From the NCBI GenBank assembly GCA_018027755.1, contig GCA_018027755.1_4098.1: DNA of 64,000 bases; one strand, written 5' to 3'. The position numbers and the translations under genes are program-made. Shown here piece after piece: positions 1,519 to 27,622 of this stretch. Each line of letters starts with the position of its first letter. Positions within the stretch are counted from its first letter, which is position 1. A model generated the notes under the pieces. The model saw only the letters and a list, made by a program, of their open reading frames with translations. It was not told the DNA's origin and did not search any database. This DNA comes from a phage.

Positions 1519-1592
1519 GCCTCAATAGCAAAATTGGTAATGCACACGATTTGTAATCGTGAGATTTTTCCGTTCGAGTCGGAATTGGGGCA
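1519..1592 (+). tRNA. tRNA-Thr (anticodon UGU)
   Basis: Hand-folded cloverleaf: 7-bp acceptor stem (one G-U), D-loop with GG, anticodon stem cacga/tcgtg with loop tttgtaa (U33, anticodon TGT, A37), T-stem ttccg/cggaa with loop ttcgagt; no encoded CCA. Confidence 0.75.
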
Positions 1593-1649
1593 CAAATAAG
1601 TTCAAGTCTGTTACATAACACTAAATACTATATAATACTTATATAGGAC

Positions 1650-2351
1650 ATGGATGTTATGAAAGAGATTATGTACAATCTATACAAAAATAAAAAATCA
1701 AAGTTATCTACTAAAGATATCAATGAATGTAAAGAATTACCTTCTTATAACACATTACTGTTAAAGTATGGTTTTACATTATCTGAACTTAATAAAGAAT
1801 TTCGTGAAAGATATTATAATGAAAACCCAAAACTTTGTTTAATGTGCAACAAATCAATACCACTATGTAAAGGATTTGAAGAGAAGAAATTTTGCAATCA
1901 ATCTTGTGCTGCCAGTTATAACAACAAAGGTTATAACAGACATACTGGTGAAATTGTCAAAGATCAGTACTGTTTATCATGTAATACATTTCTCCCTAAA
2001 GGAAAAACCGATAGGAAGTATTGTGATTTGAAATGTCACAAACAGCACCAATATGACACTTATGTTCATGCCTGGCTTTCAGGTAATAAAATTGGTTGCA
2101 CTGGTAAGACTTGCCAAATTAGTAATTATGTGAGAAGATATCTACATGAAACACGCGGAACTGCATGTGAAGAGTGTGGATGGGATAAACGTCATCCAAC
2201 AGATGGTGCAGTACTGACAGAAGTTGAGCACATTGATGGTGATGCTACAAATAATGACCTACCAAATTTAAAAATCCTTTGCCCTAATTGTCATTCGATG
2301 ACACCAACATTCAGAGCAAGGAACAAGAACTCCGCAAGGAATCGTAAATAA
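1650..2351 (+). CDS. HNH homing endonuclease with zinc-ribbon Cys pairs
   Basis: C-terminal motif EVEHIDGD...NN...NLKILCPNCH; CxxC pairs upstream; directly downstream of the tRNA. Confidence 0.8.
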   Translation: MDVMKEIMYNLYKNKKSKLSTKDINECKELPSYNTLLLKYGFTLSELNKEFRERYYNENPKLCLMCNKSIPLCKGFEEKKFCNQSCAASYNNKGYNRHTGEIVKDQYCLSCNTFLPKGKTDRKYCDLKCHKQHQYDTYVHAWLSGNKIGCTGKTCQISNYVRRYLHETRGTACEECGWDKRHPTDGAVLTEVEHIDGDATNNDLPNLKILCPNCHSMTPTFRARNKNSARNRK

Positions 2352-2367
2352 TTTTTTAAGGTACAAT

Positions 2368-2784
2368 ATGACATACAACATTGTTAAAATGGTGAACTAC
2401 GTATTAAAAAACAACGCATGGTCACTGCATGATGTACAATTAGAAGATATTGGTGAAGTTAGAGTTTTTTGCTATGATGGCGATTTGAACGAAACCACTG
2501 ATTTGAGTAAATGTTTTAATATTTTTCTTGGTTATGAAATCAATAATCATTTTTATTCATTTGATGTGTATTTTGAACGAGTTAAAATCAGAATTGCTAA
2601 TGTAAATAGTGATTATTATGACACTAGAATTGAATTGAATTTTGACGATATTGATACTGAAGAAAAATTCTTTCAGTACTGTCTCGTAAACGATCTAAAT
2701 GGATTAACATTTGATGACATTAGTGCTATCCTTAAAGTTCAAAGATTGATTCCAGAAGAGGTATTAAATCCGTTAAATGACTAG
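2368..2784 (+). CDS. hypothetical protein, paralog family A
   Basis: Shares C-terminal motif (FFQY..ND..GLT.D...AIL.V.RLI) with the ORFs at 2777, 3853 and 4271. Confidence 0.6.
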   Translation: MTYNIVKMVNYVLKNNAWSLHDVQLEDIGEVRVFCYDGDLNETTDLSKCFNIFLGYEINNHFYSFDVYFERVKIRIANVNSDYYDTRIELNFDDIDTEEKFFQYCLVNDLNGLTFDDISAILKVQRLIPEEVLNPLND

Positions 2785-3142
2785 TCTAATAGTACGTATA
2801 ATGCAAGATGTTTGTAATAACCTTTATACAGGCAATTTTGACGATCCGAACATAAAAATATTATGTTATGATGGTTTTACAATGGTACATCCAGCCTATT
2901 CAAATAATATCTACGTAGCATATACAGGTGAAAATCTATTATATCAATTTGATATATATAGTACAATGACAAAGATAATTTTGGATGCATCTAAACCAGC
3001 AATCTTTATTGCTTCTCATGATTACCATTACACTGAAGAATCACTATTTCAGTACTCAATGATTAATGACATTGGTGGGTTGACATTGGATGAGGTTAAT
3101 GCTATACTAGCTGTCTCACGTTTGGTTAAAACCCACAATTAG
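2777..3142 (+). CDS. hypothetical protein, paralog family A
   Basis: Paralogous C-terminal motif LFQYSMINDIGGLTLDEVNAILAVSRLV. Confidence 0.6.
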   Translation: MTSLIVRIMQDVCNNLYTGNFDDPNIKILCYDGFTMVHPAYSNNIYVAYTGENLLYQFDIYSTMTKIILDASKPAIFIASHDYHYTEESLFQYSMINDIGGLTLDEVNAILAVSRLVKTHN

Positions 3143-3151
3143 GAGATTCAT

Positions 3152-3343
3152 ATGTTCTGGAATTTATTATGCTTGTTTGGTCGTACATTGGTTCTTGCTA
3201 TTATTCATACACCTGGTATTCGTAATTATGTTTCTTATGAATTTAAGAAAAATTATCACAACAATACTGAAGTTCGTACAACTAAGATGTGCAAAGACTT
3301 CAAGGTAGATGTTCCACCATTCAAGAAGTACGAGGATGAATAA
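3152..3343 (+). CDS. hypothetical protein
   Basis: ORF in track; SD AGGAG upstream. Confidence 0.5.
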   Translation: MFWNLLCLFGRTLVLAIIHTPGIRNYVSYEFKKNYHNNTEVRTTKMCKDFKVDVPPFKKYEDE

Positions 3344-3627
3344 TGGAATTCATTGTTGCACCTGATGAACTTAAAACATTCACGTTCAGAGATAATAACA
3401 ATTATCCTTATACAAATCATTCATTGAATTCATTACATGTTATTGCAATCATTGCATCTGAATACAGGGATAATCCATGTATTGATTTTAAAACCACTGA
3501 TGGCGAATATACATGGGTGATCCCAAAAGATAAATATAGTTATCAAGGGGCAGTAGAAATTCGTGACTCGATTCTAAAACAAATCGAAGATGGAAATACT
3601 CATCCTAAACTAAACACTCAGTACTGA
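3343..3627 (+). CDS. hypothetical protein
   Basis: ORF in track; start overlaps previous stop. Confidence 0.5.
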   Translation: MEFIVAPDELKTFTFRDNNNYPYTNHSLNSLHVIAIIASEYRDNPCIDFKTTDGEYTWVIPKDKYSYQGAVEIRDSILKQIEDGNTHPKLNTQY

Positions 3628-3826
3628 AATCGTTTAACCCGATAGCTTCTAGTCAGTACTGATTCCTCCTTATGTATAGAAGCTATCACTTTTTTACGTA
3701 TAATGATATTACCCTCAAATTCATTATATTCGTTACCCTCTAACAGTATCTTTTTATTCCTCTTGGATGCTGTAATTTAGAAGTTGACTTTTTAACTTCT
3801 ACTGTGTTATACTTAAGGCTGATTCG

Positions 3827-3847
3827 ATGAATCGGCCTTTTTTCTTA
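3827..3847 (+). terminator. intrinsic terminator hairpin
   Basis: ggctgattcgatgaatcggcc followed by a T-run. Confidence 0.5.
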
Positions 3848-3852
3848 TATAG

Positions 3853-4281
3853 GTGAATGCAATGAGTTATTTGTTTACTTTAATTGATAAGTATGTTGAC
3901 ATTGTATACCGTCAAGTTTGTAGTGATACGTTTGAAACAAAAAACCCAATTAGAGATGGCATTTTTGATGTTGTCGTTGGATCATTTTTGAATGGATACA
4001 CAGAGACATTATACAACAGTAATAATATTTTTATTTCAGTTCAATCCAGACATACATCAGACTATGCTGTTAGCATTGATATTTGGGAAAATAATATAGA
4101 AATAGATATAACGGAACATACTAACATTCATGTTGATGATACATTTAATCAATTAACTGAAGAAATGTACTTGCAGTTGAATTTTGTACATGATCTTACA
4201 AATATCAGTTATGATACATTAAGGAAAATATGTTTTCTTAGTGGGGTGATCCGTAGTAATATGAGTAAGGATGGGAAGTGA
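3853..4281 (+). CDS. hypothetical protein, paralog family A
   Basis: GTG start at 3853 (ATG at 3862 is the alternative); family A C-terminal motif. Confidence 0.55.
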   Translation: MNAMSYLFTLIDKYVDIVYRQVCSDTFETKNPIRDGIFDVVVGSFLNGYTETLYNSNNIFISVQSRHTSDYAVSIDIWENNIEIDITEHTNIHVDDTFNQLTEEMYLQLNFVHDLTNISYDTLRKICFLSGVIRSNMSKDGK

Positions 4282-4699
4282 AATGTTAAAAATTCCACCT
4301 AAGTCGTTAACACATCTTATTGAATGTGGTGTAATATTTTCCGAAGGTGATACCTCATCATACACATTGGTCGATGAACCTTATAATTTTTCATACCAAT
4401 CTTATAAAAATAATTCTAAAATTTCTTGTAGATATGCTGAAAACATATTAATAGATGTTTCGTTACATAATGTTCCGAAATTTTACATTGATATCTTTGG
4501 TGATTCTTTGACAATTCGAACATATGATTATTTTATTAATAAAGACCTCTTGAGTCTTCCAATTGAACATGATACTATAGATTCAGAGATGTTCTTTCAG
4601 CTATCAACAGTTTACGATTTACAGGGTTTAACTGTTGAGCAGTTGAATGGAATATTTGAGATTTCACGAAACATACGAAGCAGGAATAAAAATGTCTAA
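4271..4699 (+). CDS. hypothetical protein, paralog family A
   Basis: C-terminal FFQLSTVYDLQGLTVEQLNGIFEISRNI. Confidence 0.55.
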   Translation: MGSEMLKIPPKSLTHLIECGVIFSEGDTSSYTLVDEPYNFSYQSYKNNSKISCRYAENILIDVSLHNVPKFYIDIFGDSLTIRTYDYFINKDLLSLPIEHDTIDSEMFFQLSTVYDLQGLTVEQLNGIFEISRNIRSRNKNV

Positions 4700-5102
4700 T
4701 ATTTTAAATGAAAAAACAGTTGATGTTGTTATTGGTGTTCTTAACACCGCAACTTCATTTCAGAAGAAACACAGTGTTGTATACTTTGGTGAAGATTGTT
4801 GGCTGAACTATACTAATAATTCGTTTATAATTCGTGTAGAGGCTGATGATATTGGATTAACCGTTCAGGTAGGATGTGCCAAAACTGACAAACAAATCAC
4901 TGTCATTGTTGATAAACTTACGTCTTCTTTTTATGATAGTATAGATGATTGTGAACACTATAGTTCAACATTTTATGATACAGAAGAAGAACATTTTATG
5001 GAAAGTACTGTTCAAGAGTTAGCTATTCCATATAAGCTAATGAAAGCCGTGAGTGATTTAATTTTAAAATATAAAAAAATAGGAGTTACTAATGCAATTT
5101 AA
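4692..5102 (+). CDS. hypothetical protein
   Basis: Track ORF 4647..5102; start moved to the internal ATG after AGGAATAAAA. Confidence 0.5.
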   Translation: MSNILNEKTVDVVIGVLNTATSFQKKHSVVYFGEDCWLNYTNNSFIIRVEADDIGLTVQVGCAKTDKQITVIVDKLTSSFYDSIDDCEHYSSTFYDTEEEHFMESTVQELAIPYKLMKAVSDLILKYKKIGVTNAI

Positions 5103-5538
5103 TGGTAAAGTTTCCAAAGTAGGTTTGGTTTTTGAAAACTGTGAATTTGTTGATATTGATGTAAAGAATGTTTTATGGATGCATATTGCTGATGAGAAGA
5201 CTCTTTGTAGCCGTTTTTCAAACGGACTGACAATTAGTACTGTTATCGGTGAGTTCGGTATTGCATTACGCAGCAATACACCATCGGATTTCATGGACAA
5301 CTCTACACTGTTAGACCGTTTAAAAATGCGTGACGTTACACACGTTTATCTATATGATACTAACGGTGTTGAACAGCGTTATGTAGTTGAATGGGCTAAT
5401 TATAACCTTAGTGATCAATATTCAGTAAACCAGCGTGTTCAAATCACCCCTGGTGGTAATATTGTGTTTGTTAGTTCAACTGGTAAATTAATCAGTGTAG
5501 ATGATAAAAATATTGATCTATTCACTGCATATAACTAA
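5092..5538 (+). CDS. hypothetical protein
   Basis: ORF in track, overlapping junction. Confidence 0.5.
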   Translation: MQFNGKVSKVGLVFENCEFVDIDVKNVLWMHIADEKTLCSRFSNGLTISTVIGEFGIALRSNTPSDFMDNSTLLDRLKMRDVTHVYLYDTNGVEQRYVVEWANYNLSDQYSVNQRVQITPGGNIVFVSSTGKLISVDDKNIDLFTAYN

Positions 5539-5549
5539 CAAGAGCTTTT

Positions 5550-5969
5550 ATGAAAACAATCAAAGTGCATTTCAAAGACACATGGACAGAAGTGAGTACT
5601 GGTAATATTCAGGATATTTTATATAGTACTGAAACTATTCATGTTTATGATGAAGATACTGCTGCCGAGCAGTTAAAAGTTTTGCATCGTAGTGTTGGTG
5701 AGCACACTGAATATGGCATTAAACATACTCGTGAATTACTTAATACTAATCACATTGAAACCCGTAAAGCAAACTTATCAAAAGAAGAAATGTTCGATTT
5801 CATCCTGAACCATAAAGTTCATATTGAGCCTGATGGGTCTATATGGGAGAACACTGCTGGACAAAAAGTGCTGAAAAAATATCATGTTTCAATTGATAAT
5901 GTAAAAATGTCAGGGTATGATTTGGAAGATGCAATTAATGAATATGTATCTAGGCAGAGGGCAAATTGA
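5550..5969 (+). CDS. hypothetical protein
   Basis: ORF in track. Confidence 0.5.
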   Translation: MKTIKVHFKDTWTEVSTGNIQDILYSTETIHVYDEDTAAEQLKVLHRSVGEHTEYGIKHTRELLNTNHIETRKANLSKEEMFDFILNHKVHIEPDGSIWENTAGQKVLKKYHVSIDNVKMSGYDLEDAINEYVSRQRAN

Positions 5970-6340
5970 TGAGCTTGATAACATTTACAATTATTTGTTG
6001 CATTACTATTGTACTTTGTCGCCTGATTCATGTATACTCATATCATAAAGCGTTGCGAATCGAACAAGAGATTTACAACGAAAACCGAGAACCAGAACCA
6101 GTCAAGAAGCCACCATCACCTTATGGGTTGAAACGTGAGATGCATTCTCAAAGTAAAAAGTGGGGTTATGCAATTACTAAAAATGGCTACATCTATACTG
6201 CAAGTAATGGTTATTTTCAAATTCACCACGAATTAGAAGTGGCAGTTCAAATTTTGTGGGAGATGGAGGACATTGGTGGTTATGAGCGTACTAAGTTTGA
6301 ATTCATATCAAATGATCCAGGAACTTCACGAGAAACATGA
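5966..6340 (+). CDS. hypothetical protein with N-terminal hydrophobic segment
   Basis: ORF in track; N-terminal LITFTIICCITIVLC looks like a TM or signal anchor. Confidence 0.5.
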   Translation: MMSLITFTIICCITIVLCRLIHVYSYHKALRIEQEIYNENREPEPVKKPPSPYGLKREMHSQSKKWGYAITKNGYIYTASNGYFQIHHELEVAVQILWEMEDIGGYERTKFEFISNDPGTSRET

Positions 6341-6485
6341 TATAATTGTTGATGTGGAGAAGAAGGAAGTCGTTATGAAAAAGCAAGCATATAGAATTTT
6401 AGAAGACTTCCATCTAAAAGCATTTATAATGAAGTTCTGTACAGATGAACATCTTACCGGACGAGTAATACGTAAGGAGTTGTAA
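6273..6485 (+). CDS. hypothetical protein (start uncertain)
   Basis: ORF in track; overlaps previous gene, true start may be an internal ATG. Confidence 0.35.
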   Translation: MVVMSVLSLNSYQMIQELHEKHDIIVDVEKKEVVMKKQAYRILEDFHLKAFIMKFCTDEHLTGRVIRKEL

Positions 6486-6827
6486 ATGAACTTAAGTTCA
6501 ACAATTCAGTACTTGAGCAGTAACTTCGAGAAAATTATTTCTCGCGGTGGGATGATTGTACACCCAGAAACAGAGGAAATGTACATCATTGGATTTGATA
6601 AAAATTCTTATGATCAAGTACTTGTAATTTCCAAGTTAGAAAGTTATAATGAAGTTGTTCAGTTTTGCTGTACCGAATTTGGTATATATATTAAAGACGC
6701 TGAAACTAATACAATTTCGCATTATTTTTACCACACACTGATGGGTACTAAAGACTTCGGCTTGAAGTTCGATGATTTAGTACAATGTCACTATATGTTT
6801 AAAACCTTCCCAGCTAGTGGGCATTAA
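6486..6827 (+). CDS. hypothetical protein
   Basis: ORF in track; SD AAGGAG upstream. Confidence 0.55.
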   Translation: MNLSSTIQYLSSNFEKIISRGGMIVHPETEEMYIIGFDKNSYDQVLVISKLESYNEVVQFCCTEFGIYIKDAETNTISHYFYHTLMGTKDFGLKFDDLVQCHYMFKTFPASGH

Positions 6828-6840
6828 GGAGTATATCAAT

Positions 6841-7629
6841 ATGAGCAACATTTTCTTCAAAACTATTTCTTTCAAAAAAGCATCTTACTCCTACGCCTAC
6901 GTTGATGGTAAAGTGCTTAATATTGTACTGGATGGTGTTGACGTACCAGTTGAATTTAAAACACATGAAGAAGCAGTTGAAGGTGCTAAAGAATTGAATT
7001 CAATTCTTAATGGTGAAGTAAGTCAAAAACAACATGTAAAATCTGATTTAGATGTACTTTTGGAAAAAATCAAAACTGGTGAAGTATTAGAAATTTTAGA
7101 CAACTGTAATGAAAAACTTCGTAATGTAGTTAATAATGTTCGTGACCAGATTCAAGAAAAAGCACTAGAGCAAGCATTCAAACATGTATCCAAGAATGCT
7201 GAATCTCGTATTGACGGTATGGTTAAAAATCTTGATGATGTACTATCTCATCTCTTTACTAAAGAATACGAACAAGAAGTTGAAGAAGAACCAGTAAAAG
7301 AAACTAAAAAAGAAAAACGTAGCTTTGGCTCAGGTGATGATGTGTTTGGTTTTACGAATGTCCGAACAAGTGCAGATGAACCAAAAGAAATTAGTGAGAT
7401 GCTCATTGGTGACATGACAACTAAGCAGCTTCGTAATGAAATTGACAAGTTTGTAACTAGTTGTATCAAATCAGAACGTGCACAAAGTATGTTTAAAAGC
7501 ATTAGTGAGAACTTTGGTCCAGAAGCAACTGAGCAGGCACTAACTGCATTTAAAGAATTGATTTATAATGTAGCCATTAGCAATCCAGATAAAACACTTG
7601 AAGAAGTTCTACGTGACAATTTCAAATAA
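6841..7629 (+). CDS. hypothetical acidic protein
   Basis: Track ORF 6817..7629; start moved to ATG after TAAGGAG. Confidence 0.55.
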   Translation: MSNIFFKTISFKKASYSYAYVDGKVLNIVLDGVDVPVEFKTHEEAVEGAKELNSILNGEVSQKQHVKSDLDVLLEKIKTGEVLEILDNCNEKLRNVVNNVRDQIQEKALEQAFKHVSKNAESRIDGMVKNLDDVLSHLFTKEYEQEVEEEPVKETKKEKRSFGSGDDVFGFTNVRTSADEPKEISEMLIGDMTTKQLRNEIDKFVTSCIKSERAQSMFKSISENFGPEATEQALTAFKELIYNVAISNPDKTLEEVLRDNFK

Positions 7630-7642
7630 TTAGATAAAATTA

Positions 7643-7667
7643 AAGCCACTACAATGTAGTGGCTTTT
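7643..7667. terminator. bidirectional intrinsic terminator
   Basis: aagccactacaatgtagtggctttttt between convergent genes. Confidence 0.6.
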
Positions 7668-7670
7668 TTA

Positions 7671-8825
7671 TTATGCGTTGTAACCAACTATTACGACTGA
7701 GCAGTCAAGCGGTTCTACTACTTTAAGAATTACATTATCATCTTCATCCACTTGTATTTCACTATGAACTACATGATTGTCTGAAGAATATAATTGAACT
7801 TGTGGTAGTGCTTTACCATGTTCAGTTACTGGAACTGAGATAAAGTACATAGAGTCTTCACCGAGAACCCACTCACTTAAAGTATATTCTTTATGGAAAG
7901 GAGTAGTATGCAGTGTTTTTCCGATTATACTCAAAGAAACAGGTAAATTATCAGTTTGATACACAGTAATATTACCTTCTGCGTCTACAGAAAGATCTAC
8001 ACCAACTTGATATAAGTCACCACTGTATGCTTGAAGTGCTAAGTACTGTCCACGATCATGAACATCAAATGGAACAACCGCAGAAAATACACCTTCCGAA
8101 ACAGGTTCAAATTGGGATAGAAGAACTGATGTAACAAAATCAATATCCTCACCACTTTCAAGAACATCAAATTCCACCACTTTAGTGTTATAATATGGAG
8201 AAGTGAGCGTAGCAGTACCTTTCCCTGATTGTGTGATAACATCAACTGGAATTGTAAATGCATCATTAACAAATTGGGTAGTAAAGTATTCTGTCCCGTC
8301 TGGTAATACGATTGTTATTACCATACCGTTAGTATCAATTTCTGAACCAGTGTTGAATAATTTACCACTAATTGAGTCATTACCAACAAATACTGGTGAA
8401 ATGAGAATATTATCTATATCACGATCTATAATACCACATTCAGGTGTATACATATGATACAAGGTTTGTGAACTACCTAAAATTGTTTTATGTAGCATAA
8501 ATTTATATACAAATCCAGTATCAGTTTCTTGTGGCTCTTCAGAATATCCACGAACAAAGAAACAATTTTTATTAATTTCACTTAATAGTTGGTCATTAGT
8601 TTTATTGTAATTTAATAGATAACCTTTATTATCTTTAGTTGTTATTTGTACTTTACGATATATTATATTAGTTCTGGGATCAACTAAATCATATAATCTA
8701 TGGCTTCTTTGGCGATAGATTCTAATATTTTTTAGTCTAGTTCCATCGTTGAGGATTGCACCATCAACAACATAACCACATTCACCAAACTTATAGCGTC
8801 CAGCCGCAGCAATTGACCTTGACAT
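7671..8825 (-). CDS. hypothetical protein (384 aa)
   Basis: Long minus-strand ORF with GGAGGG SD upstream; the only minus-strand gene in the first 37 kb. Confidence 0.65.
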   Translation of the reverse strand: MSRSIAAAGRYKFGECGYVVDGAILNDGTRLKNIRIYRQRSHRLYDLVDPRTNIIYRKVQITTKDNKGYLLNYNKTNDQLLSEINKNCFFVRGYSEEPQETDTGFVYKFMLHKTILGSSQTLYHMYTPECGIIDRDIDNILISPVFVGNDSISGKLFNTGSEIDTNGMVITIVLPDGTEYFTTQFVNDAFTIPVDVITQSGKGTATLTSPYYNTKVVEFDVLESGEDIDFVTSVLLSQFEPVSEGVFSAVVPFDVHDRGQYLALQAYSGDLYQVGVDLSVDAEGNITVYQTDNLPVSLSIIGKTLHTTPFHKEYTLSEWVLGEDSMYFISVPVTEHGKALPQVQLYSSDNHVVHSEIQVDEDDNVILKVVEPLDCSVVIVGYNA

Positions 8826-8941
8826 TTATCCCTCCATTGGTATAATTATTATAACGTATTTATTATGCATATCCAAAAAATGAGCTTGACTGGTGTATGA
8901 TTTGGTGTTATCATGTAGTGAATGAATAATGAGGTGTTTTT

Positions 8942-10684: not shown

Positions 10685-10726
10685 TATTATAATTAACACA
10701 CCAAGTAACCCAAGGGGGGATGGAAA

Positions 10727-11185: not shown

Positions 11186-11186
11186 T

Positions 11187-16965: not shown

Positions 16966-16970
16966 AATAC

Positions 16971-17995: not shown

Positions 17996-17997
17996 CA

Positions 17998-18999: not shown

Positions 19000-19004
19000 C
19001 TAAT

Positions 19005-19941: not shown

Positions 19942-19944
19942 TAA

Positions 19945-20163: not shown

Positions 20164-20371
20164 GATGTGGTGGTGTCATGGTGTATATAACGTGTATGTA
20201 AATGGTAGATATAAAATGTCTAGTACCTATGCAAGACGTGTTAATGCGAACAACCAAGTTGATGCTGCTTGTGAGATCATTGAGTGGTATGCTGAGTTCA
20301 ATGCACCTGACTATATGTACGAAATAGTTACAATAAATGTTGTACAAATCGATACATCTTTGATACAATAA
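20156..20371 (+). CDS. hypothetical protein
   Basis: ORF in track. Confidence 0.45.
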   Translation: MTKMWWCHGVYNVYVNGRYKMSSTYARRVNANNQVDAACEIIEWYAEFNAPDYMYEIVTINVVQIDTSLIQ

Positions 20372-20401
20372 CCACATCAAAAAATTGCATCTGAGGATAC
20401 T

Positions 20402-21062
20402 TATGTTAGTTAATCTTAATTTCATCACTTCACCTGACTGGGCATTACGTGGAGTTTCTTTAAACTTCAAGGAAACTATGTTTGACTACATTGGTGAGTG
20501 TACATTGGTAAATGCAACTTTTGATCCAAATCATCCGTTTTGGGCTGAAATTCATGATCCAAATGTAAACAATACATCTGTTATGACTATTGTCCAGACT
20601 AAACATGCAGGTATCCTTGCAGGTTATCGACCTGCACATGCAATTGAACATTTCACTGATTACGATGTCGTGGATGAATACCCAATGATCCATGAAGATG
20701 GAAGTCTATACACATCTGAAGACTTCCGTGCTATCTTTAATAGTACTGATGATATTCTACCAAGTGGACGTCCACGTCCTGAGTCTTATCTTATGCATCC
20801 ATCTTATGGTGTAGCAGATACGCTTGAACAGATTATGAAGAAGTACAAGAACCTAATTGAAGGTCCAGAAGAAATTGTCTTGTGCTATCACCCAGTACTT
20901 AAGTCTGAACAACCAAAGGATGGTGGATGGCGTTGGCATAAGAATGGTGAGTATATCGGTACTAAACGAAGTAAAGAACGTTTTGAGTACTTGTATGATG
21001 AGCCAGATGTTGATGTGGTTTTGTGTTATAATTTTATTAAGGTGAAAAAGAAATGTATCTAG
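20402..21062 (+). CDS. hypothetical protein
   Basis: Track ORF 20385..21062; start moved to ATG after GAGGATACTT. Confidence 0.5.
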
Positions 21063-21295
21063 TACTAAGTTTTGTTGTTGCACTATTGTTTATGTTTTAT
21101 CCTACACTAGTGGCATTAGCCACTAGACGAACGATGGTAGATCTCACTACTGTATTCTTGCTAAACGTGGCATTAGTACTGGTGTCTATTATCATTCCAG
21201 TGAGCTTTACAGTTATTGATATTATTTCGGTATTACTCTTCGTGTTAAGTTATCTTATGCTTATTGAAGAAACAAATGTTGACAAACGTTCGTAG
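21053..21295 (+). CDS. small membrane protein
   Basis: Hydrophobic throughout. Confidence 0.5.
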   Translation: MYLVLSFVVALLFMFYPTLVALATRRTMVDLTTVFLLNVALVLVSIIIPVSFTVIDIISVLLFVLSYLMLIEETNVDKRS

Positions 21296-21352
21296 TACTG
21301 TATAATGGTTCCTGTAGTCTGAAACTTAACACTTAAACTTGAGGTAAAAAAT

Positions 21353-21679
21353 ATGCTATCAGTACTAATTTCAATTCCGTCTTTAATTCTGATTTGGCTT
21401 CTGGTTTACGAATGCTTTATTACTGATGATAATGATAAAAAAGAGTTCTCTGAGTTGTTTATGCTTGATTCACCGATTGTGCGTATTTTCTATACAGTCG
21501 TTGTGGTTTCAGTAATTGTATGGGTTTTGAGTTTTATCTTCCCACTCGGTGCAGTAGTTAAAACTTTGGATTTAGTTGAGAACTTTGTTGCAATTATGTG
21601 GCTAATCAAAGCACTATTTGCAGGAAATGTTAAAATTTGGATTGATATTATCAAATTCAAGTTCACGAATAAGATGTAA
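21353..21679 (+). CDS. membrane protein
   Basis: Several TM segments; SD GAGGTAAAAAAT upstream. Confidence 0.55.
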   Translation: MLSVLISIPSLILIWLLVYECFITDDNDKKEFSELFMLDSPIVRIFYTVVVVSVIVWVLSFIFPLGAVVKTLDLVENFVAIMWLIKALFAGNVKIWIDIIKFKFTNKM

Positions 21680-21757
21680 CAGTCAAAATACCTCTATAGT
21701 ATTAAATACTTCTGTACATATATATAGTACAGAAGTATTTCTCGTTAGAGGTTTGTT

Positions 21758-22117
21758 ATGAAAAGTTATATAAAATTAATAGCACTTGTGTGTGCATTAT
21801 TTTCATGTTTTAGTTATGGTGCAGCAGCAGAAACATATTGTCGTAGTACTAAGGGAACGTGGCATGTATTGACTAACGACCCTAGAAATGGTAAAAATAT
21901 AGTTGTTGATGGCGTGATTTATCGTTTTAAAGTAGAAAGTATTATTGGTAATAAAAAAATCTCGACTTATAGAGATGATTCTGGTACATTAGCAAACGTA
22001 ATATTAATTGTAGACCCAAGAACTGGTAATGGTGATATCTATATAGTAATTTACTTGGACTCATCGGTACGCCGTGACCTAGATATAGATAAATTGAACT
22101 TACACTGTGAAATATAG
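21758..22117 (+). CDS. small secreted protein
   Basis: Signal peptide ...CFSYGAAAE; Cys near both ends. Confidence 0.55.
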   Translation: MKSYIKLIALVCALFSCFSYGAAAETYCRSTKGTWHVLTNDPRNGKNIVVDGVIYRFKVESIIGNKKISTYRDDSGTLANVILIVDPRTGNGDIYIVIYLDSSVRRDLDIDKLNLHCEI

Positions 22118-22128
22118 GACTTAAAAAA

Positions 22129-22506
22129 ATGGTAAACACTATTTTACTTTTGTTGTTGAATATTCCAATTATTCTGTCTTTTTTAATTTCTATTTTTATG
22201 GCAGGATATTGTTTAGTTGCAGTAATTCATTTTATTTTAACAAACAAATATGTCCTAATTTCTAAGCTTGATTCTATTTTTGCTTGCGATTCAATGGCTT
22301 ATAACTTATGGTTAATTTGTTCTTGCATTATGGGAGTAACTTTCCTTCTGCATGTATTTGATGTCCTTGACCAAAAGTTCGTATACATCAGTACTGGATT
22401 GGCTCTTTATCCTGCTACGTGGTACTTGATTTACGTTGGTGATATATGGTATAGTACTTATAAAGAATATCAGTACAAGAAATCACTTAACGTTGGAGGA
22501 AAATAA
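22129..22506 (+). CDS. membrane protein
   Basis: Several TM segments. Confidence 0.5.
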   Translation: MVNTILLLLLNIPIILSFLISIFMAGYCLVAVIHFILTNKYVLISKLDSIFACDSMAYNLWLICSCIMGVTFLLHVFDVLDQKFVYISTGLALYPATWYLIYVGDIWYSTYKEYQYKKSLNVGGK

Positions 22507-22508
22507 TC

Positions 22509-22859
22509 ATGAAAATTATTTTATTTTTTGTATGTATGTTAATGTGTGGATTGTCATATGCTGAACCATTGGAAGGTTTAGTTTGTACAGATGGTAATAT
22601 TAAACATATCTATCAAGGTGATAGTGACGATCGAGATATTGTATATATTGATGGACAATCATATACGTTTGTTAAAGAGCATACAGTAGGCGACATTAGC
22701 TTCACTGAGTTTTCTAACGACACAGACCCTAACTTCTTAGCGTTTATTGAAGTAGATGTATATGAAGATAGTAATGGTACACAATATGCTAAATTAGTTA
22801 TGATGCGTCGTGGTGCTAAAGAAACTAGTTTTGGTGGCTTGTGTAAATATAAGGATTGA
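22509..22859 (+). CDS. small secreted protein
   Basis: Signal peptide ...GLSYAEP; Cys near both ends. Confidence 0.55.
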   Translation: MKIILFFVCMLMCGLSYAEPLEGLVCTDGNIKHIYQGDSDDRDIVYIDGQSYTFVKEHTVGDISFTEFSNDTDPNFLAFIEVDVYEDSNGTQYAKLVMMRRGAKETSFGGLCKYKD

Positions 22860-22863
22860 TATT

Positions 22864-23055
22864 ATGTTGATTTATCAAAGTGATAATATTCGTGTTATGC
22901 AGCATCCCTACTTACAAATCTTTGATGTGCAGCAGTATATGGAAGGTGATGACCCAAGAACCTATGGTCGTAAGTATGATTACTTCACTGTAAAGCAGTG
23001 TAATAATATTAACGAAGTACGACAATTAGTTCAAGAACTTCAAAACAAAGGTTGA
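22864..23055 (+). CDS. hypothetical protein
   Basis: Track ORF 22810..23055; start moved to ATG after AAGGATTGAT. Confidence 0.45.
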   Translation: MLIYQSDNIRVMQHPYLQIFDVQQYMEGDDPRTYGRKYDYFTVKQCNNINEVRQLVQELQNKG

Positions 23056-23073
23056 CTTCGGTCAGCCTTTTTT
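23049..23073 (+). terminator. intrinsic terminator (GGTTGACTTCGGTCAGCC family)
   Basis: Hairpin with TTCG loop followed by a T-run. Confidence 0.65.
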
Positions 23074-23109
23074 GTTATAATTCTCTTAATAAATTAGAGG
23101 ATTTTAATT

Positions 23110-23550
23110 ATGTATGTATATCGTTTTGAACTTAAATTTAGTTACATTGAACCTAACTTAGATCCTGCACGAACTGTAGGTCCGTTTGCACGGTATTCAA
23201 CCAGATACAGTACTAAAAATGGATTTGACCGTTTGCTCATGACTACACCTTCTCAATTCCAACCTGAACCAACTGAGGATGGGATCTATTCAATCAAAAG
23301 TGGATGGGTATTTGGCTGTCAAAGTTTGAAAGATTTGTTCAGATTCTTCACTATGGACTTAGGTAAATTGCATCGTGCTGGGTTTGCTATATCTGTATAT
23401 GAAGTTCCAGACCACCATGTAGACATTGGTCGTAATCAGGTTCAGTACTATTGCGGTAGTGCTAAATTAGTTCGTATCATGTCAGTTAAGGAAGCAAAGG
23501 ATGAGTTCCGACAAAGTAAAAGAGAAACACATGAGGTAATATATGGATAA
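23110..23550 (+). CDS. hypothetical protein
   Basis: SD AGAGGA upstream. Confidence 0.55.
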   Translation: MYVYRFELKFSYIEPNLDPARTVGPFARYSTRYSTKNGFDRLLMTTPSQFQPEPTEDGIYSIKSGWVFGCQSLKDLFRFFTMDLGKLHRAGFAISVYEVPDHHVDIGRNQVQYYCGSAKLVRIMSVKEAKDEFRQSKRETHEVIYG

Positions 23551-23887
23551 AACTCAAATAGAATTAAAGAAATTTGTTTCATTCTATCTTCCTGATGACC
23601 CACGTAATTCACAAAAAGATATTGAATATTATAATATCCTATCTAAACAGTTAATGAGAAAGTTTCAACAGTGTTTAACTATATTCAATACAGATGGAAG
23701 ACGTAGATACCGAATCGTTTCAATGAATGATGAAAACGCAAATTTCTTTGATTACGATGTGGTTTTTAGAGCATATAATGATGATCGTATAAAATTAAAT
23801 TATGATCAAATTATACTTGACCTGAATGTTATATGTGTTATAATCACTCACGTAGCCGAACTTAATGGTTTTAAAGAATGGTATTGA
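23543..23887 (+). CDS. hypothetical protein
   Basis: ORF in track. Confidence 0.5.
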   Translation: MDKTQIELKKFVSFYLPDDPRNSQKDIEYYNILSKQLMRKFQQCLTIFNTDGRRRYRIVSMNDENANFFDYDVVFRAYNDDRIKLNYDQIILDLNVICVIITHVAELNGFKEWY

Positions 23888-23901
23888 ATAGAGGATAACA
23901 T

Positions 23902-24168
23902 ATGAAGCTTAAATTACAATATAATGGATTTACTTTACGTAATGATACTGAATTTATTAATCGTTCTCCTGGTGCTGAACTGTTTTTACGAGAGATGAAC
24001 ATTCCTTTCATCATTACTACAGTGGGCGACCGTGAAGTTCTACAATACGCAGAGCATCCGATCATTGATGTTCCTTGGTACTCTGAGCATATGTACATGG
24101 ATATGGCACGTCGCTACAACTGTAAGTTCGTAGTTGAAGGTGATAAAATTACAGTCGAATTTAAATAA
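23902..24168 (+). CDS. hypothetical protein
   Basis: SD AGAGGA upstream. Confidence 0.5.
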   Translation: MKLKLQYNGFTLRNDTEFINRSPGAELFLREMNIPFIITTVGDREVLQYAEHPIIDVPWYSEHMYMDMARRYNCKFVVEGDKITVEFK

Positions 24169-24179
24169 GGTAAATTAAA

Positions 24180-24473
24180 ATGATCAGTACTTCAGTTAAT
24201 GAAAGCATCGTCGCTGACGTAGAAATGGTTAAAGAATGTGCAGATGAAACTCTTCGTGATATGTACATTAATGATTTAATTACTGAATACGGTAGTCGTG
24301 GTGTACACGAATTTATTCGTTTAAGTGGAGAGTTGATGAAAAATCGAATTCGTATGAAGCTTAACGTACATCCAAAAGCATGGGCATTTACATTAAAATA
24401 CGCAGAAGATATTGTGAATTTGCGTCGAACTGAAGTATATGAACGTTTGCACAATGGTATGTTAGATAAATGA
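24180..24473 (+). CDS. hypothetical protein
   Basis: ORF in track. Confidence 0.5.
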   Translation: MISTSVNESIVADVEMVKECADETLRDMYINDLITEYGSRGVHEFIRLSGELMKNRIRMKLNVHPKAWAFTLKYAEDIVNLRRTEVYERLHNGMLDK

Positions 24474-24525
24474 TTGTAAAATAGGAATTCTTAAATGAAT
24501 TCCTTTTTGTTTATAAGGTATAGTA

Positions 24526-24747
24526 ATGAAATATATAGTACTTGTACTGATATTATTCAGTACTGTTGTAAGTGCTAAACAAAAAGAATATATTAAATGT
24601 ATAAATTATGAAGAGAAATATGTTGAAACATATAAAAAAAGTATAATTAAAAACGTTTCGATTACTAACAGAGCAACAATCATTGTACTTAAAAATGGGT
24701 TAATTATGCTATATAAACCACACGTTAAATGTGAAATTATTAATTGA
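24526..24747 (+). CDS. small secreted protein
   Basis: Signal peptide ...STVVSAKQ. Confidence 0.5.
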   Translation: MKYIVLVLILFSTVVSAKQKEYIKCINYEEKYVETYKKSIIKNVSITNRATIIVLKNGLIMLYKPHVKCEIIN

Positions 24748-24754
24748 GGAAATT

Positions 24755-25327
24755 ATGAATCGTAAAGGTCGTTTTAAAGTATCAAAAAAGAACAAAAGTT
24801 CTAGGTTTAAACATATTGTTTTAACAGTTAAATCTAACAAAGATTTAACTGCACTTAGTAAAAAGATAATTTCATCTAAGATTGAAGTATCATACGTAAA
24901 TTCATTAAAATATATGAATGTCAAACCACTGGACCAACTCATTTCACTTATATTTGAACGTAATGATTTTGAGATATCAGTAGATGATTATAGAGCCTAT
25001 AATGCTGGTTTCATTAATGTTACTTGTAATAAAAAACTAACTGAGTTGGAAAATTTGTCATGTATAATAAATCTAGATAAAGGTGTTGTGAAGTACCATT
25101 TTGTACATTTCACTAATATCAATAATGGAATGGGTGTACAATCCAGACCTATAGTGCCTACGTGTGATGTTACTAAATTAGCAAAGCTCAATGATGAAGA
25201 ATATTTTCAAGAAAGCATTGTAACTGAGCATTTAGATGATATAATAGCTACTTACAAAGAATGCATATGGGTGTTGAATGCTATAAAACCTAAATTGTGT
25301 TTAATGAATATTGTTCGTGATTTATGA
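24755..25327 (+). CDS. hypothetical basic protein
   Basis: Track ORF 24731..25327; start moved to ATG after GAGGAAATT. Confidence 0.5.
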   Translation: MNRKGRFKVSKKNKSSRFKHIVLTVKSNKDLTALSKKIISSKIEVSYVNSLKYMNVKPLDQLISLIFERNDFEISVDDYRAYNAGFINVTCNKKLTELENLSCIINLDKGVVKYHFVHFTNINNGMGVQSRPIVPTCDVTKLAKLNDEEYFQESIVTEHLDDIIATYKECIWVLNAIKPKLCLMNIVRDL

Positions 25328-25340
25328 ATGGGGAATCGTA

Positions 25341-25784
25341 ATGAGTTGGGTAAATGTTAATAGTATTGAACTTAACGAACAAGATATTTTTGCATTTGTA
25401 AATTTAACTAATAACACAGTACTAAAAGGGCGTTTGTTCAGTGCTAGTGATGGGTACAAATGGATCTCTTTGATGGATGATAGTGGTGTGATTTATAATG
25501 TAATGCAATTACCCCAATGGGTATATAGTAACACTGCTGACGATGTTCTTACCGCAGTTATGCGTGAGTTTGAAAAACTCCCAGGTGGTGATATCAAAAA
25601 CAAAGTTTTTAATGCAGAACGTAAAAATTATACAGCACAGCAATTGGAATCCCTTGCCATTGCTGCTTATCAAGCTGCTATTAAGAAGCCAGAGTGCGTT
25701 ATTCTTAAGTATGTACCAGACTTAAAACTTACGTTGGAAAACATGGATGCATTCATTTTTACATCTGAACTTGATCAGTACTAA
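25341..25784 (+). CDS. hypothetical protein
   Basis: Track ORF 25311..25784; internal ATG start. Confidence 0.5.
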   Translation: MSWVNVNSIELNEQDIFAFVNLTNNTVLKGRLFSASDGYKWISLMDDSGVIYNVMQLPQWVYSNTADDVLTAVMREFEKLPGGDIKNKVFNAERKNYTAQQLESLAIAAYQAAIKKPECVILKYVPDLKLTLENMDAFIFTSELDQY

Positions 25785-25899
25785 TTTAACTTTGGGACAA
25801 CCATTCTTATTATGATATAATGTTTTATGTCATTCGATATAAATGACAACGGAACTATAAATATTATAGTAAAATTTATCTCTTATAGGAGTTATAAAA

Positions 25900-26283
25900 A
25901 TGGTTGATAAATGGAATAAGAAAGATCCATCACATGATGTTGATATTTCTGGTCTAGACAATGCACATAAGCACAAGTATCTAGATTCACTAGGTCTTCT
26001 AAAACCAGACCAAAGTCTTGCACATGATCGTCCATCCCGTGAAAAAGCATTTAGCCTAGAATCACTAGGTCATGAGCTTAATCGTGTGTTTGAGGATCAC
26101 CCAATCTATGTACGTGATATTATCGAGAAACTTAAAGTAACTCCTAAAGAGCACTTTAAAGCAACTGTACACTCTGCATTCCGTGCATTACATGAATCTC
26201 TAAAGAAAACTCACAATCTTCGTAAAATTCATGATGAAATCGTGAATGCAATCGAAAGTGAAAAACATAAGTTCAAGAAGTAA
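25900..26283 (+). CDS. hypothetical protein
   Basis: SD AGGAG upstream; shares a YLDSLGLLKP-like motif with the ORF at 27627. Confidence 0.55.
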   Translation: MVDKWNKKDPSHDVDISGLDNAHKHKYLDSLGLLKPDQSLAHDRPSREKAFSLESLGHELNRVFEDHPIYVRDIIEKLKVTPKEHFKATVHSAFRALHESLKKTHNLRKIHDEIVNAIESEKHKFKK

Positions 26284-26288
26284 TAAAA

Positions 26289-26308
26289 GGGTTGACTAAG
26301 GTCAGCCC
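26289..26308 (+). terminator. intrinsic terminator (GGTTGACT..GGTCAGCC family)
   Basis: gggttgactaaggtcagccc followed by a T-rich tail. Confidence 0.55.
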
Positions 26309-26350
26309 TTTGTTGTATCATAACTTCTCAATATAACTGAGGTATCATAT

Positions 26351-26464
26351 ATGCAAGGTTTGAAATTTGTAGTTGCTGCACTCATCGCTGCTGTTGTAGT
26401 GGGTACAGTATGTTATTCAATTGACACCTATATCAATACACCTAGTGTTGAACAAACCAAATAA
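26351..26464 (+). CDS. small membrane peptide (37 aa)
   Basis: Short ORF MQGLKFVVAALIAAVVVGTV... after GAGG; not in track. Confidence 0.3.
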   Translation: MQGLKFVVAALIAAVVVGTVCYSIDTYINTPSVEQTK

Positions 26465-26472
26465 GGGATATC

Positions 26473-26736
26473 ATGGCTGAAACATTATCACTATATGCGT
26501 TAGTACTGTTATTTGTCGGATTTCTTCCCGCACTCATTACAGCCATTCGTGTTGTTAAACATGAAGCTGCATTGATTGTATGTAGTATTGGGTCGAACAT
26601 TCTATTGTATTTCTTTTTGACAAATACTATTGTACTGTTTGCTTTCTTTATCATGATTCTGTGGGTACTTGTAATTCTCGGATTCTTCATTTGGTCATTG
26701 GTTGATCCTAAGAAAAAATCAGGAGAAGTGAAATGA
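26473..26736 (+). CDS. membrane protein
   Basis: Three hydrophobic segments. Confidence 0.5.
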   Translation: MAETLSLYALVLLFVGFLPALITAIRVVKHEAALIVCSIGSNILLYFFLTNTIVLFAFFIMILWVLVILGFFIWSLVDPKKKSGEVK

Positions 26737-27029
26737 AATTAATTATAGCAATGATAATGTGTTTGGCTTTCCCTGTACTGGCTACTCCTAATCTGGACTG
26801 CACACTGTTGCGTTCAGATGGTGACACACTTGAAATCAACACATATGAACTCTTTGGTCCAAGTGTAGTGGAGAATGAAACCACCTACAATTTCAAAGCT
26901 ATTGACTTTGAAGGTAATGTTCCAGTACTAACTACAATGACTATTGACAAAACTACTTTACTCGGACGAATCACCACACAACGCGGAGAAAGTAAAACAT
27001 TCACAGCGAAAGCTGACTGTAACTACTAA
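26733..27029 (+). CDS. small secreted protein
   Basis: Signal peptide ...AFPVLATP; Cys near both ends. Confidence 0.55.
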   Translation: MKLIIAMIMCLAFPVLATPNLDCTLLRSDGDTLEINTYELFGPSVVENETTYNFKAIDFEGNVPVLTTMTIDKTTLLGRITTQRGESKTFTAKADCNY

Positions 27030-27040
27030 TGGTATAGTAC

Positions 27041-27059
27041 AGTGAAAATAGGGTTGACT
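27041..27059 (+). terminator. intrinsic terminator hairpin
   Basis: gggttgacttcggtcaacc. Confidence 0.5.
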
Positions 27060-27079
27060 TCGGTCAACCTTTATATATA

Positions 27080-27622
27080 ATGGAAGAAATAAACATGGAA
27101 CGTTGGAAATTAATTCCTGATTATGACTATTCAATTTCTGATCATGGAAGAGTAAGAAACGAACAAACTGGATATATAAGTTGTGGATTTAAAAATAAAG
27201 ATGGGTATGTGAAGGTCGATTTGTATCGCAATTCTGTGAAAAATAGAAAGGCGATTCATCGACTAGTAGCTGAAGCATTTTTACCACCACCCACACAGAA
27301 ACAGTTACAGTGGGCGAGTAGAACAAAGAAAAAAGTTGTTCACATAAACCATAAAGATTGTAATAGAAGTAACAATCACTATTTGAATTTGGAATGGAAC
27401 ACAGCATCTGAAAACGTACTATATTCTTATTCACATGGTAACGCAACAACTAATCGTGGTGCTGCTGTGTTGACATGGGAAATTGTAAGAGAAATAAGAA
27501 AAGATTATAATGATAATTATAATGATGTGATAGAATATGCACGAGAAAATTGTAATAAATACCGTGTATGTAAAAAAACAATACGTCGTATTTTATACAA
27601 TCAAACATGGATAGAGGATTAA
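27080..27622 (+). CDS. HNH_3/NUMOD4-type homing endonuclease
   Basis: ERWKLIPDYDYSISDHGRVRN...GYVKVDL..N...KAIHRLVAEAF, then HINHKDCNRSNNHYLNLEW.TASEN. Confidence 0.75.
   Translation: MEEINMERWKLIPDYDYSISDHGRVRNEQTGYISCGFKNKDGYVKVDLYRNSVKNRKAIHRLVAEAFLPPPTQKQLQWASRTKKKVVHINHKDCNRSNNHYLNLEWNTASENVLYSYSHGNATTNRGAAVLTWEIVREIRKDYNDNYNDVIEYARENCNKYRVCKKTIRRILYNQTWIED

Follow-up and report, generated by a model that had tools for sequence, protein, structure and literature searches.

Three free-standing HNH endonuclease genes in an Asteriusvirus jumbo phage, one of them probably directed at the neighbouring tRNA-Thr(UGU) gene

We analysed a 64,000-nucleotide (nt) stretch of phage DNA (GenBank assembly GCA_018027755.1, contig GCA_018027755.1_4098.1), hereafter called the window. 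It belongs to Asteriusvirus, the E. coli jumbo phages of the 121Q/PBECO4/G17 group; relatives are 95–99% identical to it, and no database record matches it at full identity. The window carries three free-standing, intron-less HNH genes on the + strand, HNH-1 (1650..2351), HNH-2 (15677..16465) and HNH-3 (27080..27622). They are likely to be homing endonuclease genes caught at three stages of their life cycle, and HNH-1 probably targets the tRNA-Thr gene next to it. An initial annotation of the sequence had placed the three open reading frames (ORFs) and the tRNA-Thr gene at these positions and had named the HNH subtypes. The positions were confirmed, and the subtypes held up in Pfam and PHROGs searches, in an alignment of 26 homologues, in a match to the structure 1U3E and in the HNH_5 matches of the HNH-2 relatives. 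ARAGORN detected a single tRNA in the window, tRNA-Thr(UGU). A Pfam scan of the 83 other window ORFs found no further HNH, GIY-YIG or LAGLIDADG domain, and three is therefore the right count. It is known that free-standing HNH homing endonucleases commonly give rise to mosaicism in phage genomes, and the basic finding is ordinary. The window nevertheless shows three stages of a homing element side by side, with base-level breakpoints and co-conversion tracts, and could serve as a handy natural system for phage crosses.

Judged by their sequences, all three proteins are confirmed as HNH (His-Me finger) nucleases, a superfamily defined by a beta-beta-alpha-metal core that has a catalytic His and an Asn or His as metal ligand, mostly within a frame of two CxxC pairs. 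The HNH-3 protein itself passes the Pfam gathering scores, whereas HNH-1 and HNH-2 fall below them and are assigned through family alignments and through homologues that pass. The domain search proposed with the initial annotation thus came out positive for HNH-3, while HNH-1 (20.2 bits, just short of the cut-off) and HNH-2 (15.7 bits, E = 0.017) stayed under the gathering score of 21.4 for the HNH family.

The HNH-3 protein is 180 amino acids (aa) long and is predicted to be an I-HmuI-like HNH endonuclease. Its NUMOD4 domain (aa 7–49) scored 30.6 bits (gathering 23.4) and its HNH_3 domain (aa 58–113) 30.1 bits (gathering 24.8), as expected from its earlier designation as a NUMOD4/HNH_3 type. 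This order of domains, NUMOD4 followed by HNH_3, defines the I-HmuI-like class and occurs in HNH-3, not in HNH-1 or HNH-2. In a PDB sequence search, the solved homing endonuclease I-HmuI (1U3E), the HNH nickase of the Bacillus phage SPO1 group I intron, aligned to residues 8–127 of HNH-3 (E = 2.2e-5). The two proteins share the NUMOD4-type strands and the HNH_3 motif (...NHKD...N.LEW), in which the catalytic-motif His of HNH-3 would be H91, and N103 lies within NLEW. Unlike I-HmuI, HNH-3 is free-standing and not intron-encoded, has N90 in place of the Asp before the catalytic His, and ends in about 50 residues that do not align. Translation probably starts at ATG 27095, the annotated orthologue in phage EC.P1 being 175 aa long.

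HNH-1 (233 aa) has a helical domain at its N-terminus, followed by two Cys4 zinc modules and, at the C-terminus, an HNH core; it matched the PHROGs HNH families with E = 4e-22. In the alignment of 26 full-length homologues, both Cys4 modules (C63/C66/C82/C86 and C108/C111/C125/C129) are invariant, and they account for the zinc ribbons noted in the initial annotation. The core residues C173, C176, H194, N206, C211, C214 and H215 are also invariant. The AlphaFold model (predicted local distance difference test score, pLDDT, 84.6) had the HNH domains of McrA, Cap5, PacI and TagI as its top PDB matches. These matches were local only, so the full architecture has no solved counterpart. The gene begins 56 nt downstream of tRNA-Thr(UGU), and its start codon is probably ATG 1659 (homologues begin with MKE, and AGGA stands at 1645–1648).

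HNH-2 (262 aa) contains a divergent HNH/HNH_5 domain at about aa 41–128, and its C-terminal half has no assigned fold. The motif comprises C47xxC50, D86-H87, N101 and C106xxC109-N110. An exhaustive HMMER search with HNH-2 found 95 distant relatives, all aligned at residues ~30–150. HNH_5 was matched by 59 of the 65 relatives scanned (best E = 7e-23) and HNH by 52 of the 65. C47, C50, H87, C106 and C109 are invariant in this alignment, and D86, N101 and N110 nearly so. A PDB sequence search with HNH-2 returned only chance-level matches to ribosomal protein L33, and the AlphaFold model, built from a four-sequence alignment, was not usable (pLDDT 48.6). A profile–profile comparison with HNH-1 aligned the N..LC..C(H/N) motif at a probability of 1.9%, with a profile too shallow for the purpose. 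Both HNH-1 and HNH-2 have the CxxC...(D/E)H...N...CxxC(H/N) core of the T4 MobA-E/McrA type (His-Me finger family 1: Pfam HNH, HNH_5). Within this group, MobE is a homing HNH enzyme of phages whose gene is free-standing (PMC2790892). The likeness is confined to the core: the N-terminal helical domain and Cys4 modules of HNH-1 and the C-terminal half of HNH-2 have no solved counterpart.

The genomes of the closest relatives, G17 and phAPEC6, are collinear with window positions 1..32000, one unbroken alignment covering 24 kb at 98.3% identity. Three structural differences were found in this region (1507..2357, 26395..27677 and 28522..28872), and two of them coincide exactly with the HNH-1 and HNH-3 cassettes. 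Insertion polymorphism, for which the initial annotation had suggested looking, was present for all three genes: HNH-1 and HNH-3 are missing from G17 and phAPEC6, and HNH-2 from EC22.5-2. Each gene is thus present or absent at the same locus with an intact empty site, and flanking co-conversion was seen for HNH-1 and HNH-3. The proposal that such genes mark mosaic regions applies strongly to these two, which make up two of the three differences in 32 kb, and more weakly to HNH-2, which is vertically inherited in most of the genus.

In place of the HNH-3 cassette (26395..27677, + strand), the phages G17, phAPEC6 and ELP-22 have about 200 bp. EC.P1 is a distant member of the genus, with 80–88% DNA identity to the window in the HNH-3 region, but the stretch at ~26430..27730 is 99–100% identical to EC.P1 between flanks of 66–93%. 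The left joint lies inside a small conserved ORF that is phAPEC6-like up to ~26392 and EC.P1-like thereafter. The right joint is a conserved patch about 110 nt into a virion structural protein gene (27627..28886, + strand). The 5' end of this gene (27627..27740, + strand) therefore appears co-converted, and the first 50 residues of the protein are identical to EC.P1, unlike those of phAPEC6. The HNH-3 protein is 100% identical in EC.P1 only, and every other phage match is below 60%. Because a nearly identical block sits between diverged flanks, the data indicate a recent lateral transfer of HNH-3 with co-conversion into the virion protein gene, and the pattern is the footprint that would be expected of homing. 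Two small ORFs (26473..27029, + strand) also belong to the cassette; one encodes a membrane protein of 87 aa, the other a protein of 98 aa whose N-terminus resembles a signal peptide. In EC.P1 they form one 185-aa ORF, which is split in the window by a 1-nt difference in an A-run at 26712; a true frameshift, a slippery site or, in either of the two genomes, a sequencing error could each account for it.

The HNH-1 replacement block (1507..2357, + strand) holds a tRNA-Thr allele as well as HNH-1, where G17, JP4 and phAPEC6 have 88 bp. Homology to G17 and JP4 breaks at 1506, leaving 12 nt to the tRNA, and is found again from 2358 onwards, which places the tRNA gene within the replaced block. This tRNA-Thr(UGU), here called allele C (1519..1593, + strand; ARAGORN; Rfam tRNA 60.1 bits, gathering 29), is only 53% identical to allele A of the HNH-free relatives G17 and JP4. 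A third allele, B, accompanies a shorter, 131-aa HNH protein in WPEC5 and vB_Ec-M-J. All three alleles score as real tRNAs. Allele A (L001:2010-2083 in G17; L004:1997-2070 in JP4) is E. coli K-12 thrU (L137:389-464) with the anticodon stem alone exchanged; it agrees fully with thrU in the acceptor stem, D-arm, variable loop and T-arm.

The gene HNH-1 is itself a chimera. Its 5' part, up to 2128, is nearest to contig L126 (76–98% in 50-nt windows), while its 3' part (2129..2351) is 95–100% identical to the 131-aa HNH gene of WPEC5/vB_Ec-M-J. The similarity to WPEC5/EcMJ continues at 98% from 2129 to ~2740, and from ~2750 the window is 98–100% G17-like. It follows that, besides the chimeric HNH-1, there is a co-conversion tract of ~390 nt in the next gene (ORF 2368..2784); this tract (2358..2740, + strand) is 98% WPEC5/EcMJ-like and 72–98% G17-like. 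The 5' two-thirds of HNH-1, together with an identical allele C, occurs only on the metagenomic contigs L126 and L127 (~88% identity); on L126 the tRNA again stands with a long HNH gene. Joint arrival of the tRNA with the gene of the closest full-length homologue, that of Cronobacter phage GAP32, was rejected, as the two tRNAs are only 58% identical. By its sequence, the real relative is an unsampled Asteriusvirus lineage present on these Logan contigs. HNH-1 is, on this comparison, a recent arrival in an otherwise G17-like backbone. JP4, WPEC5 and JNE01 carry another annotated HNH gene just upstream of the position matching the left end of the window, and in JP4 it adjoins a tRNA-Ser gene.

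HNH-2 presents a different picture. The block without counterpart in EC22.5-2 (15418..16456, + strand) consists of HNH-2 and a 76-aa ORF (phrog_28392; 15445..15675, + strand) that is present or absent jointly with it; EC22.5-2 has 86 bp there, and the absence is clean, with flanking genes ~75 bp apart. HNH-2 was found at ≥80% coverage in 31 records, which fall into two lineages with 96–100% and ~80% aa identity. In A4 it is reduced to a C-terminal remnant of 47% identity. Between the window and EC.P1, the ratio of nonsynonymous to synonymous substitution rates (dN/dS, omega) is 0.27. The HNH core (aa 41–128) is unchanged at the protein level (dN = 0, dS = 0.21), while the C-terminal half evolves faster (omega 0.38). 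The dS of the gene, 0.48, is like that of neighbouring genes (0.06–1.4), and the same divergence comparison with EC.P1 revealed no co-conversion tract. These features fit an old, vertically inherited resident, found at one and the same site across most of the genus and maintained under purifying selection.

Such a gene might also be domesticated, and HNH-2, possibly with the others, could serve in host DNA degradation, in competition with co-infecting phages or in packaging. The single fixed site in most of the genus, the purifying selection with an unchanged catalytic core and neighbour-like dS, and the lack of signs of recent transfer are what a domesticated nuclease would show as well. Yet HNH-2 is dispensable: some members lack it altogether and have an intact empty site, and in others such as A4 it is degraded. 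It does not adjoin terminase genes, and the faster C-terminal half is expected of the DNA-recognition domain of a homing enzyme. We therefore regard domestication as unlikely and a persistent homing gene as the better account of HNH-2.

The link between HNH-1 and tRNA-Thr(UGU) extends well beyond Asteriusvirus. The closest full-length homologues, from Cronobacter phage GAP32, Xanthomonas phage XbC2, Ochrobactrum phage OC and a T5-like Klebsiella phage, all directly adjoin tRNA-Thr(UGU). A profile-based scan of viral contigs, in which only non-identical loci were counted and the HNH-3 family served as the control, found a tRNA within 1.5 kb of 62 of the 71 HNH-1-family loci and of 1 of the 25 HNH-3-family loci (Fisher p = 3e-14). 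The earlier remark that these endonucleases often sit next to tRNA genes therefore understates the case for HNH-1, whose whole family is tied to tRNA clusters, and fails for the HNH-3 family. Among the 17 closest HNH-1 relatives, Thr(tgt) is the immediate neighbour, upstream or downstream, in 13. On neighbour-joining clustering, the HNH-1 clade adjoins Thr(tgt) in 16 of 20 leaves, as against 7 of 50 elsewhere (p = 3e-7), but tree leaves are not independent samples, and the p-values overstate the evidence and are indicative only. Elsewhere in the tree the neighbours are other tRNAs, and the wider family adjoins many of them (Leu, Ser, Arg, Gly, Val, Tyr and others). The HNH-1-type neighbours of Thr(UGU) span unrelated lineages, including Mimasvirus, Sugarlandvirus, Tequintavirus and Kyanoviridae, and in Ochrobactrum phage OC the HNH gene lies on the strand opposite to the tRNA. 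HNH-1 thus points to a widespread, uncharacterised clade tied to the gene of one tRNA isoacceptor.

In three lineages, of which Asteriusvirus is one, presence of the HNH gene coincides with a tRNA that has been swapped or has diverged to an unusual degree. In Sugarlandvirus, 2 of 97 records carry the HNH gene. When genomes with and without it are compared, the differing block has its start 5 nt inside tRNA-Thr; within it, the entire tRNA is exchanged and the HNH gene is added, and homology is restored at the next tRNA. In T5-like phages the HNH gene adjoins the 5' end of the tRNA; about 14 differences lie in the tRNA body, and the downstream flank is ~99% identical. Pectobacterium phage CBB (L065:1397-1614) has an HNH remnant beside its tRNA-Thr(UGU), a 16-codon ORF with 88% identity to HNH-1 residues 196–228. 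It is apparently a decayed copy, consistent with a cycle of gain, decay and loss of the homing gene. On the 366-kb viral contig IMGVR_UViG_3300012988_000001 (L022, L023), two HNH-1-family paralogues lie ~3 kb apart beside tRNA-Thr(tgt) and tRNA-Ser(act). This pair on one jumbo-phage contig suggests retargeting between neighbouring tRNA genes.

The position of the HNH-1 clade beside tRNA-Thr(UGU) is most likely explained by recognition of the tRNA-Thr gene by the enzyme. The closest precedent is T4 SegB, which is encoded between tRNA genes and absent from close relatives, recognises a T-psi-C motif, cuts within the tRNA genes of phages that lack the nuclease and, with co-conversion, causes the tRNA region to be inherited preferentially (PMC2330249). 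HNH-1 resembles SegB in its location in a tRNA cluster, in its insertion polymorphism and in the exchange of flanking tRNA and gene sequence. The two differ in that SegB has a GIY-YIG catalytic domain and HNH-1 an HNH core with two Cys4 modules; with different catalytic domains they are not homologous, and HNH-1 is not of the Seg family. Moreover, the SegB motif is common to many tRNAs, whereas the association of the HNH-1 clade is with a single isoacceptor, tRNA-Thr(UGU). By analogy, HNH-1 may recognise the tRNA-Thr gene, as DNA, of nuclease-free genomes, and the linked allele would be a version that resists cutting and moves along with it. Repair by recombination with the nuclease-carrying genome would then copy the nuclease gene and adjacent DNA into the recipient genome. 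In the present phage, the HNH-1 block would have swapped the resident host-like tRNA-Thr(UGU) for a very different allele and converted ~390 nt downstream, and HNH-3 would have been copied jointly with the two small ORFs and ~110 nt at the start of the virion protein gene. If the tRNA-Thr gene is the target, HNH-1 would be an HNH counterpart of SegB with narrower specificity, which would explain the movement of tRNA alleles between unrelated phages.

Besides the non-independence of the tree leaves, several points weigh against this interpretation. For all three genes, nuclease activity, cleavage and target sites, and homing or biased inheritance are inferred from the observed domain identities, insertion polymorphism, breakpoints, identity gradients and tRNA association. 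The HNH identity of HNH-2 is a matter of transitive homology only, because its own Pfam score is weak and it is the distant relatives that match HNH_5 and HNH. The conservation of HNH-2 and the purifying selection acting on it fit a domesticated function and a persistent selfish element equally well. The HNH-3 polymorphism could reflect gain here or loss elsewhere, although near-identity to the distant EC.P1 argues for recent transfer. As for the target, four of the 20 HNH-1 clade members adjoin another tRNA or none. The tRNA-Thr alleles beside HNH-1 relatives are mutually 40–60% identical and share little beyond the anticodon loop and T-loop; a target motif common to them could not be derived, and no difference consistently splits HNH-linked from HNH-free alleles. 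Two candidate marks of HNH-linked alleles were rejected. A non-canonical D-arm marks them in Asteriusvirus and Sugarlandvirus, but the two alleles of the T5-like pair have the same non-canonical D-arm, and a rule based on the anticodon stem fails for WPEC5. A fair share of probability stays with three rivals: placement beside tRNAs for expression or safe-harbour reasons, recombination at the hairpin repeats, and domestication of HNH-2.

The lack of a common target sequence would also follow if the HNH-1 family settled beside tRNAs for reasons of expression or tolerance, that is, for co-transcription, for processing by RNase P/E that limits toxicity, or because tRNA clusters are dispensable safe harbours. 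The wider family adjoins many tRNA identities, in keeping with this idea, and processing of the tRNA-cluster transcript was proposed in the SegB study to down-regulate such nucleases (PMC2330249). Upstream of the tRNA there is a candidate promoter: a sigma-70 promoter-like site, TTGACA-16-TATAAT (1195..1222, + strand), matches the consensus at 12 of 12 positions ~300 nt before tRNA-Thr and could drive a tRNA-Thr/HNH-1 transcript. However, an arrangement chosen for expression or safety predicts no preference among tRNAs, and the 16 of 20 clade members adjoin Thr(UGU) on either side, even on the opposite strand, amid many other tRNAs. It also leaves aside the fact that precisely those loci with the HNH gene have a swapped or unusually diverged tRNA. 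Expression or tolerance as the reason for the association is therefore unlikely, and recognition of the tRNA-Thr gene is preferred.

Passive carriage of the HNH genes has to be weighed most closely around HNH-3, where short repeats recur. An intergenic hairpin, GGTTGACTTCGGTCARCC, has five copies in the window (23050..23067, 26290..26307, 27052..27069, 28897..28914 and 33813..33830; the copies at 26290, 27052 and 28897 on the + strand), with none expected by chance. It reads GGTTGAC-TTCG-GTCARCC followed by a T-run, is terminator-like and contains a TTGAC -35-like hexamer. The copies at 26290, 27052 and 28897 bracket the HNH-3 mosaic zone. The first sits ~90 bp before the left junction of the cassette. 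The second, GGTTGACTTCGGTCAACC followed by a T-run (27052..27069, + strand), is a terminator-like element directly upstream of HNH-3, and its TTGACT -35-like hexamer stands 16 nt before a TATAAT (27076..27081). The third bounds the remaining structural difference at 28522..28872, which lies ~900 bp downstream of HNH-3 and has no nuclease gene. At this site the window lacks between ~1.0 kb (three small ORFs, gp032c-gp034c, in phAPEC6) and 1.7 kb (in G17), and the 3' end of the structural protein gene differs. These hairpins are reminiscent of the promoter/stem-loop cassettes thought to shuffle genes in T4-type phages.

Such recurrent hairpins could mediate recombination without any nuclease, which also counts against our interpretation. 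The patches would then be products of ordinary homologous or illegitimate recombination between co-infecting phages at 'PeSL'-like repeats, with the HNH genes as cargo. The hairpin-bounded, nuclease-free third difference is in line with this, and so are several further small-ORF indels relative to the more distant EC.P1, none of which has an HNH gene. On the other hand, two of the three differences in 32 kb are HNH cassettes, and the third is within ~900 bp of one. The junctions of the HNH-3 block fall within coding sequence and not at hairpins, HNH-1 has no flanking hairpin of that kind, and the combination of an HNH gene with a swapped or diverged tRNA recurs in two other phage lineages. Passive carriage is therefore improbable, and an active role of the nucleases in producing the cassettes is favoured.

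The exchanged tRNA itself is of interest for host defence. A prime target of the PARIS nuclease AriB is tRNA-Thr(UGU), that of E. coli being cut at U36AAUC|A41 (PMC12409363, in which T5 tRNAs were assayed for AriB cleavage and for rescue of infection under PARIS restriction). Phage tRNA-Thr(UGU) is known to matter for escape from this defence. The anticodon-stem exchange in allele A removes UAAUC|A, so that allele A resembles a host tRNA that was captured and then altered to escape the defence. As allele A is a host-like copy of thrU, the HNH-1 block would have displaced a host-derived, escape-like allele in this phage. At this motif, allele C has UAAUC|G and the allele of B01 has UAAUC|A. We considered whether the HNH-linked alleles are themselves AriB-escape variants and rejected it, since the pattern is opposite or inconsistent: the HNH-free allele A is the one without the site. 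The locus varies within the genus. Turkey3 (L131:1352-1505) and JNE01 (L132:2041-2194) have two tandem tRNA-Thr(UGU) genes that are 77–85% identical to each other, and with alleles A, B and C the genus has at least five tRNA-Thr(UGU) alleles. Selection of tRNA-Thr(UGU) and HNH-1 as a module for the sake of the tRNA, for instance to resist PARIS/AriB, with the nuclease as a mere vehicle or as an attacker of host thrU, would suit this allele hot-spot and the joint recurrence of the allele with a long HNH gene on L126, but is very unlikely, because the escape-like variant is the HNH-free one, and UAAUC|G or UAAUC|A is retained in the HNH-linked alleles of the window and of B01, respectively.

Homing directed at the tRNA-Thr gene may still have consequences for defence. 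A bolder extension, which we put forward tentatively and with much less confidence than homing itself, is that the HNH-1 clade, with one or more Cys4 zinc modules and an HNH core, is an uncharacterised homing family whose site is the tRNA-Thr(UGU) gene; it would swap alleles across unrelated phages, reshuffle anti-defence tRNAs and might cut host thrU. If true, a nuclease that swaps tRNA-Thr(UGU) alleles would give selfish DNA a part in the contest of phages with host defences.

HNH genes in phage tRNA clusters have been mentioned by surveys in general terms only (PMC6409571). Among characterised enzymes, the F-Tfl HNH proteins (F-TflI, F-TflII, F-TflIV) are encoded in the tRNA cluster of T5 (Akulenko et al. 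2004, as cited in PMC2330249 and PMC5714182). They share with HNH-1 the HNH family and the location, and T5-like phages have short (~130 aa) relatives of HNH-1. The comparison was made with HdH2, a short relative of HNH-1, as the query. An HNH protein of the T5 tRNA region, whose ORF was not tied to a named F-Tfl enzyme, matches HdH2 only in a core of ~50 residues at 43% identity, and proteins of T4-like phages annotated as 'F-TflIV' are ~30% identical to it. With matches limited to the core or at ~30%, the F-Tfl proteins appear to be distant relatives and not the same subfamily.

Minor features of the window were also recorded. A candidate sigma-70 promoter between the tRNA and HNH-1, TTACAT...TATAAT, was discarded, as its spacer is 14 nt and the scan made no call; the short HNH gene of WPEC5/EcMJ is preceded by a similar motif, TTACATA...TAAATACT...ATAATA. 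A sigma-70-family sigma factor gene (regions 2, 3 and 4) lies at 13623..14588, and its product has 59.6% protein identity to the EC.P1 orthologue (dS 1.4), with neighbours far less diverged. About 12 paralogous ORFs of 245–449 aa occupy 38540..52874 on the minus strand, and ten of them match RCC1-like repeat domains (PF25390, E = 1e-32). Finally, the region 52900..64000 contains only five ORFs of ≥90 aa in 11 kb, as compared to dense packing elsewhere.

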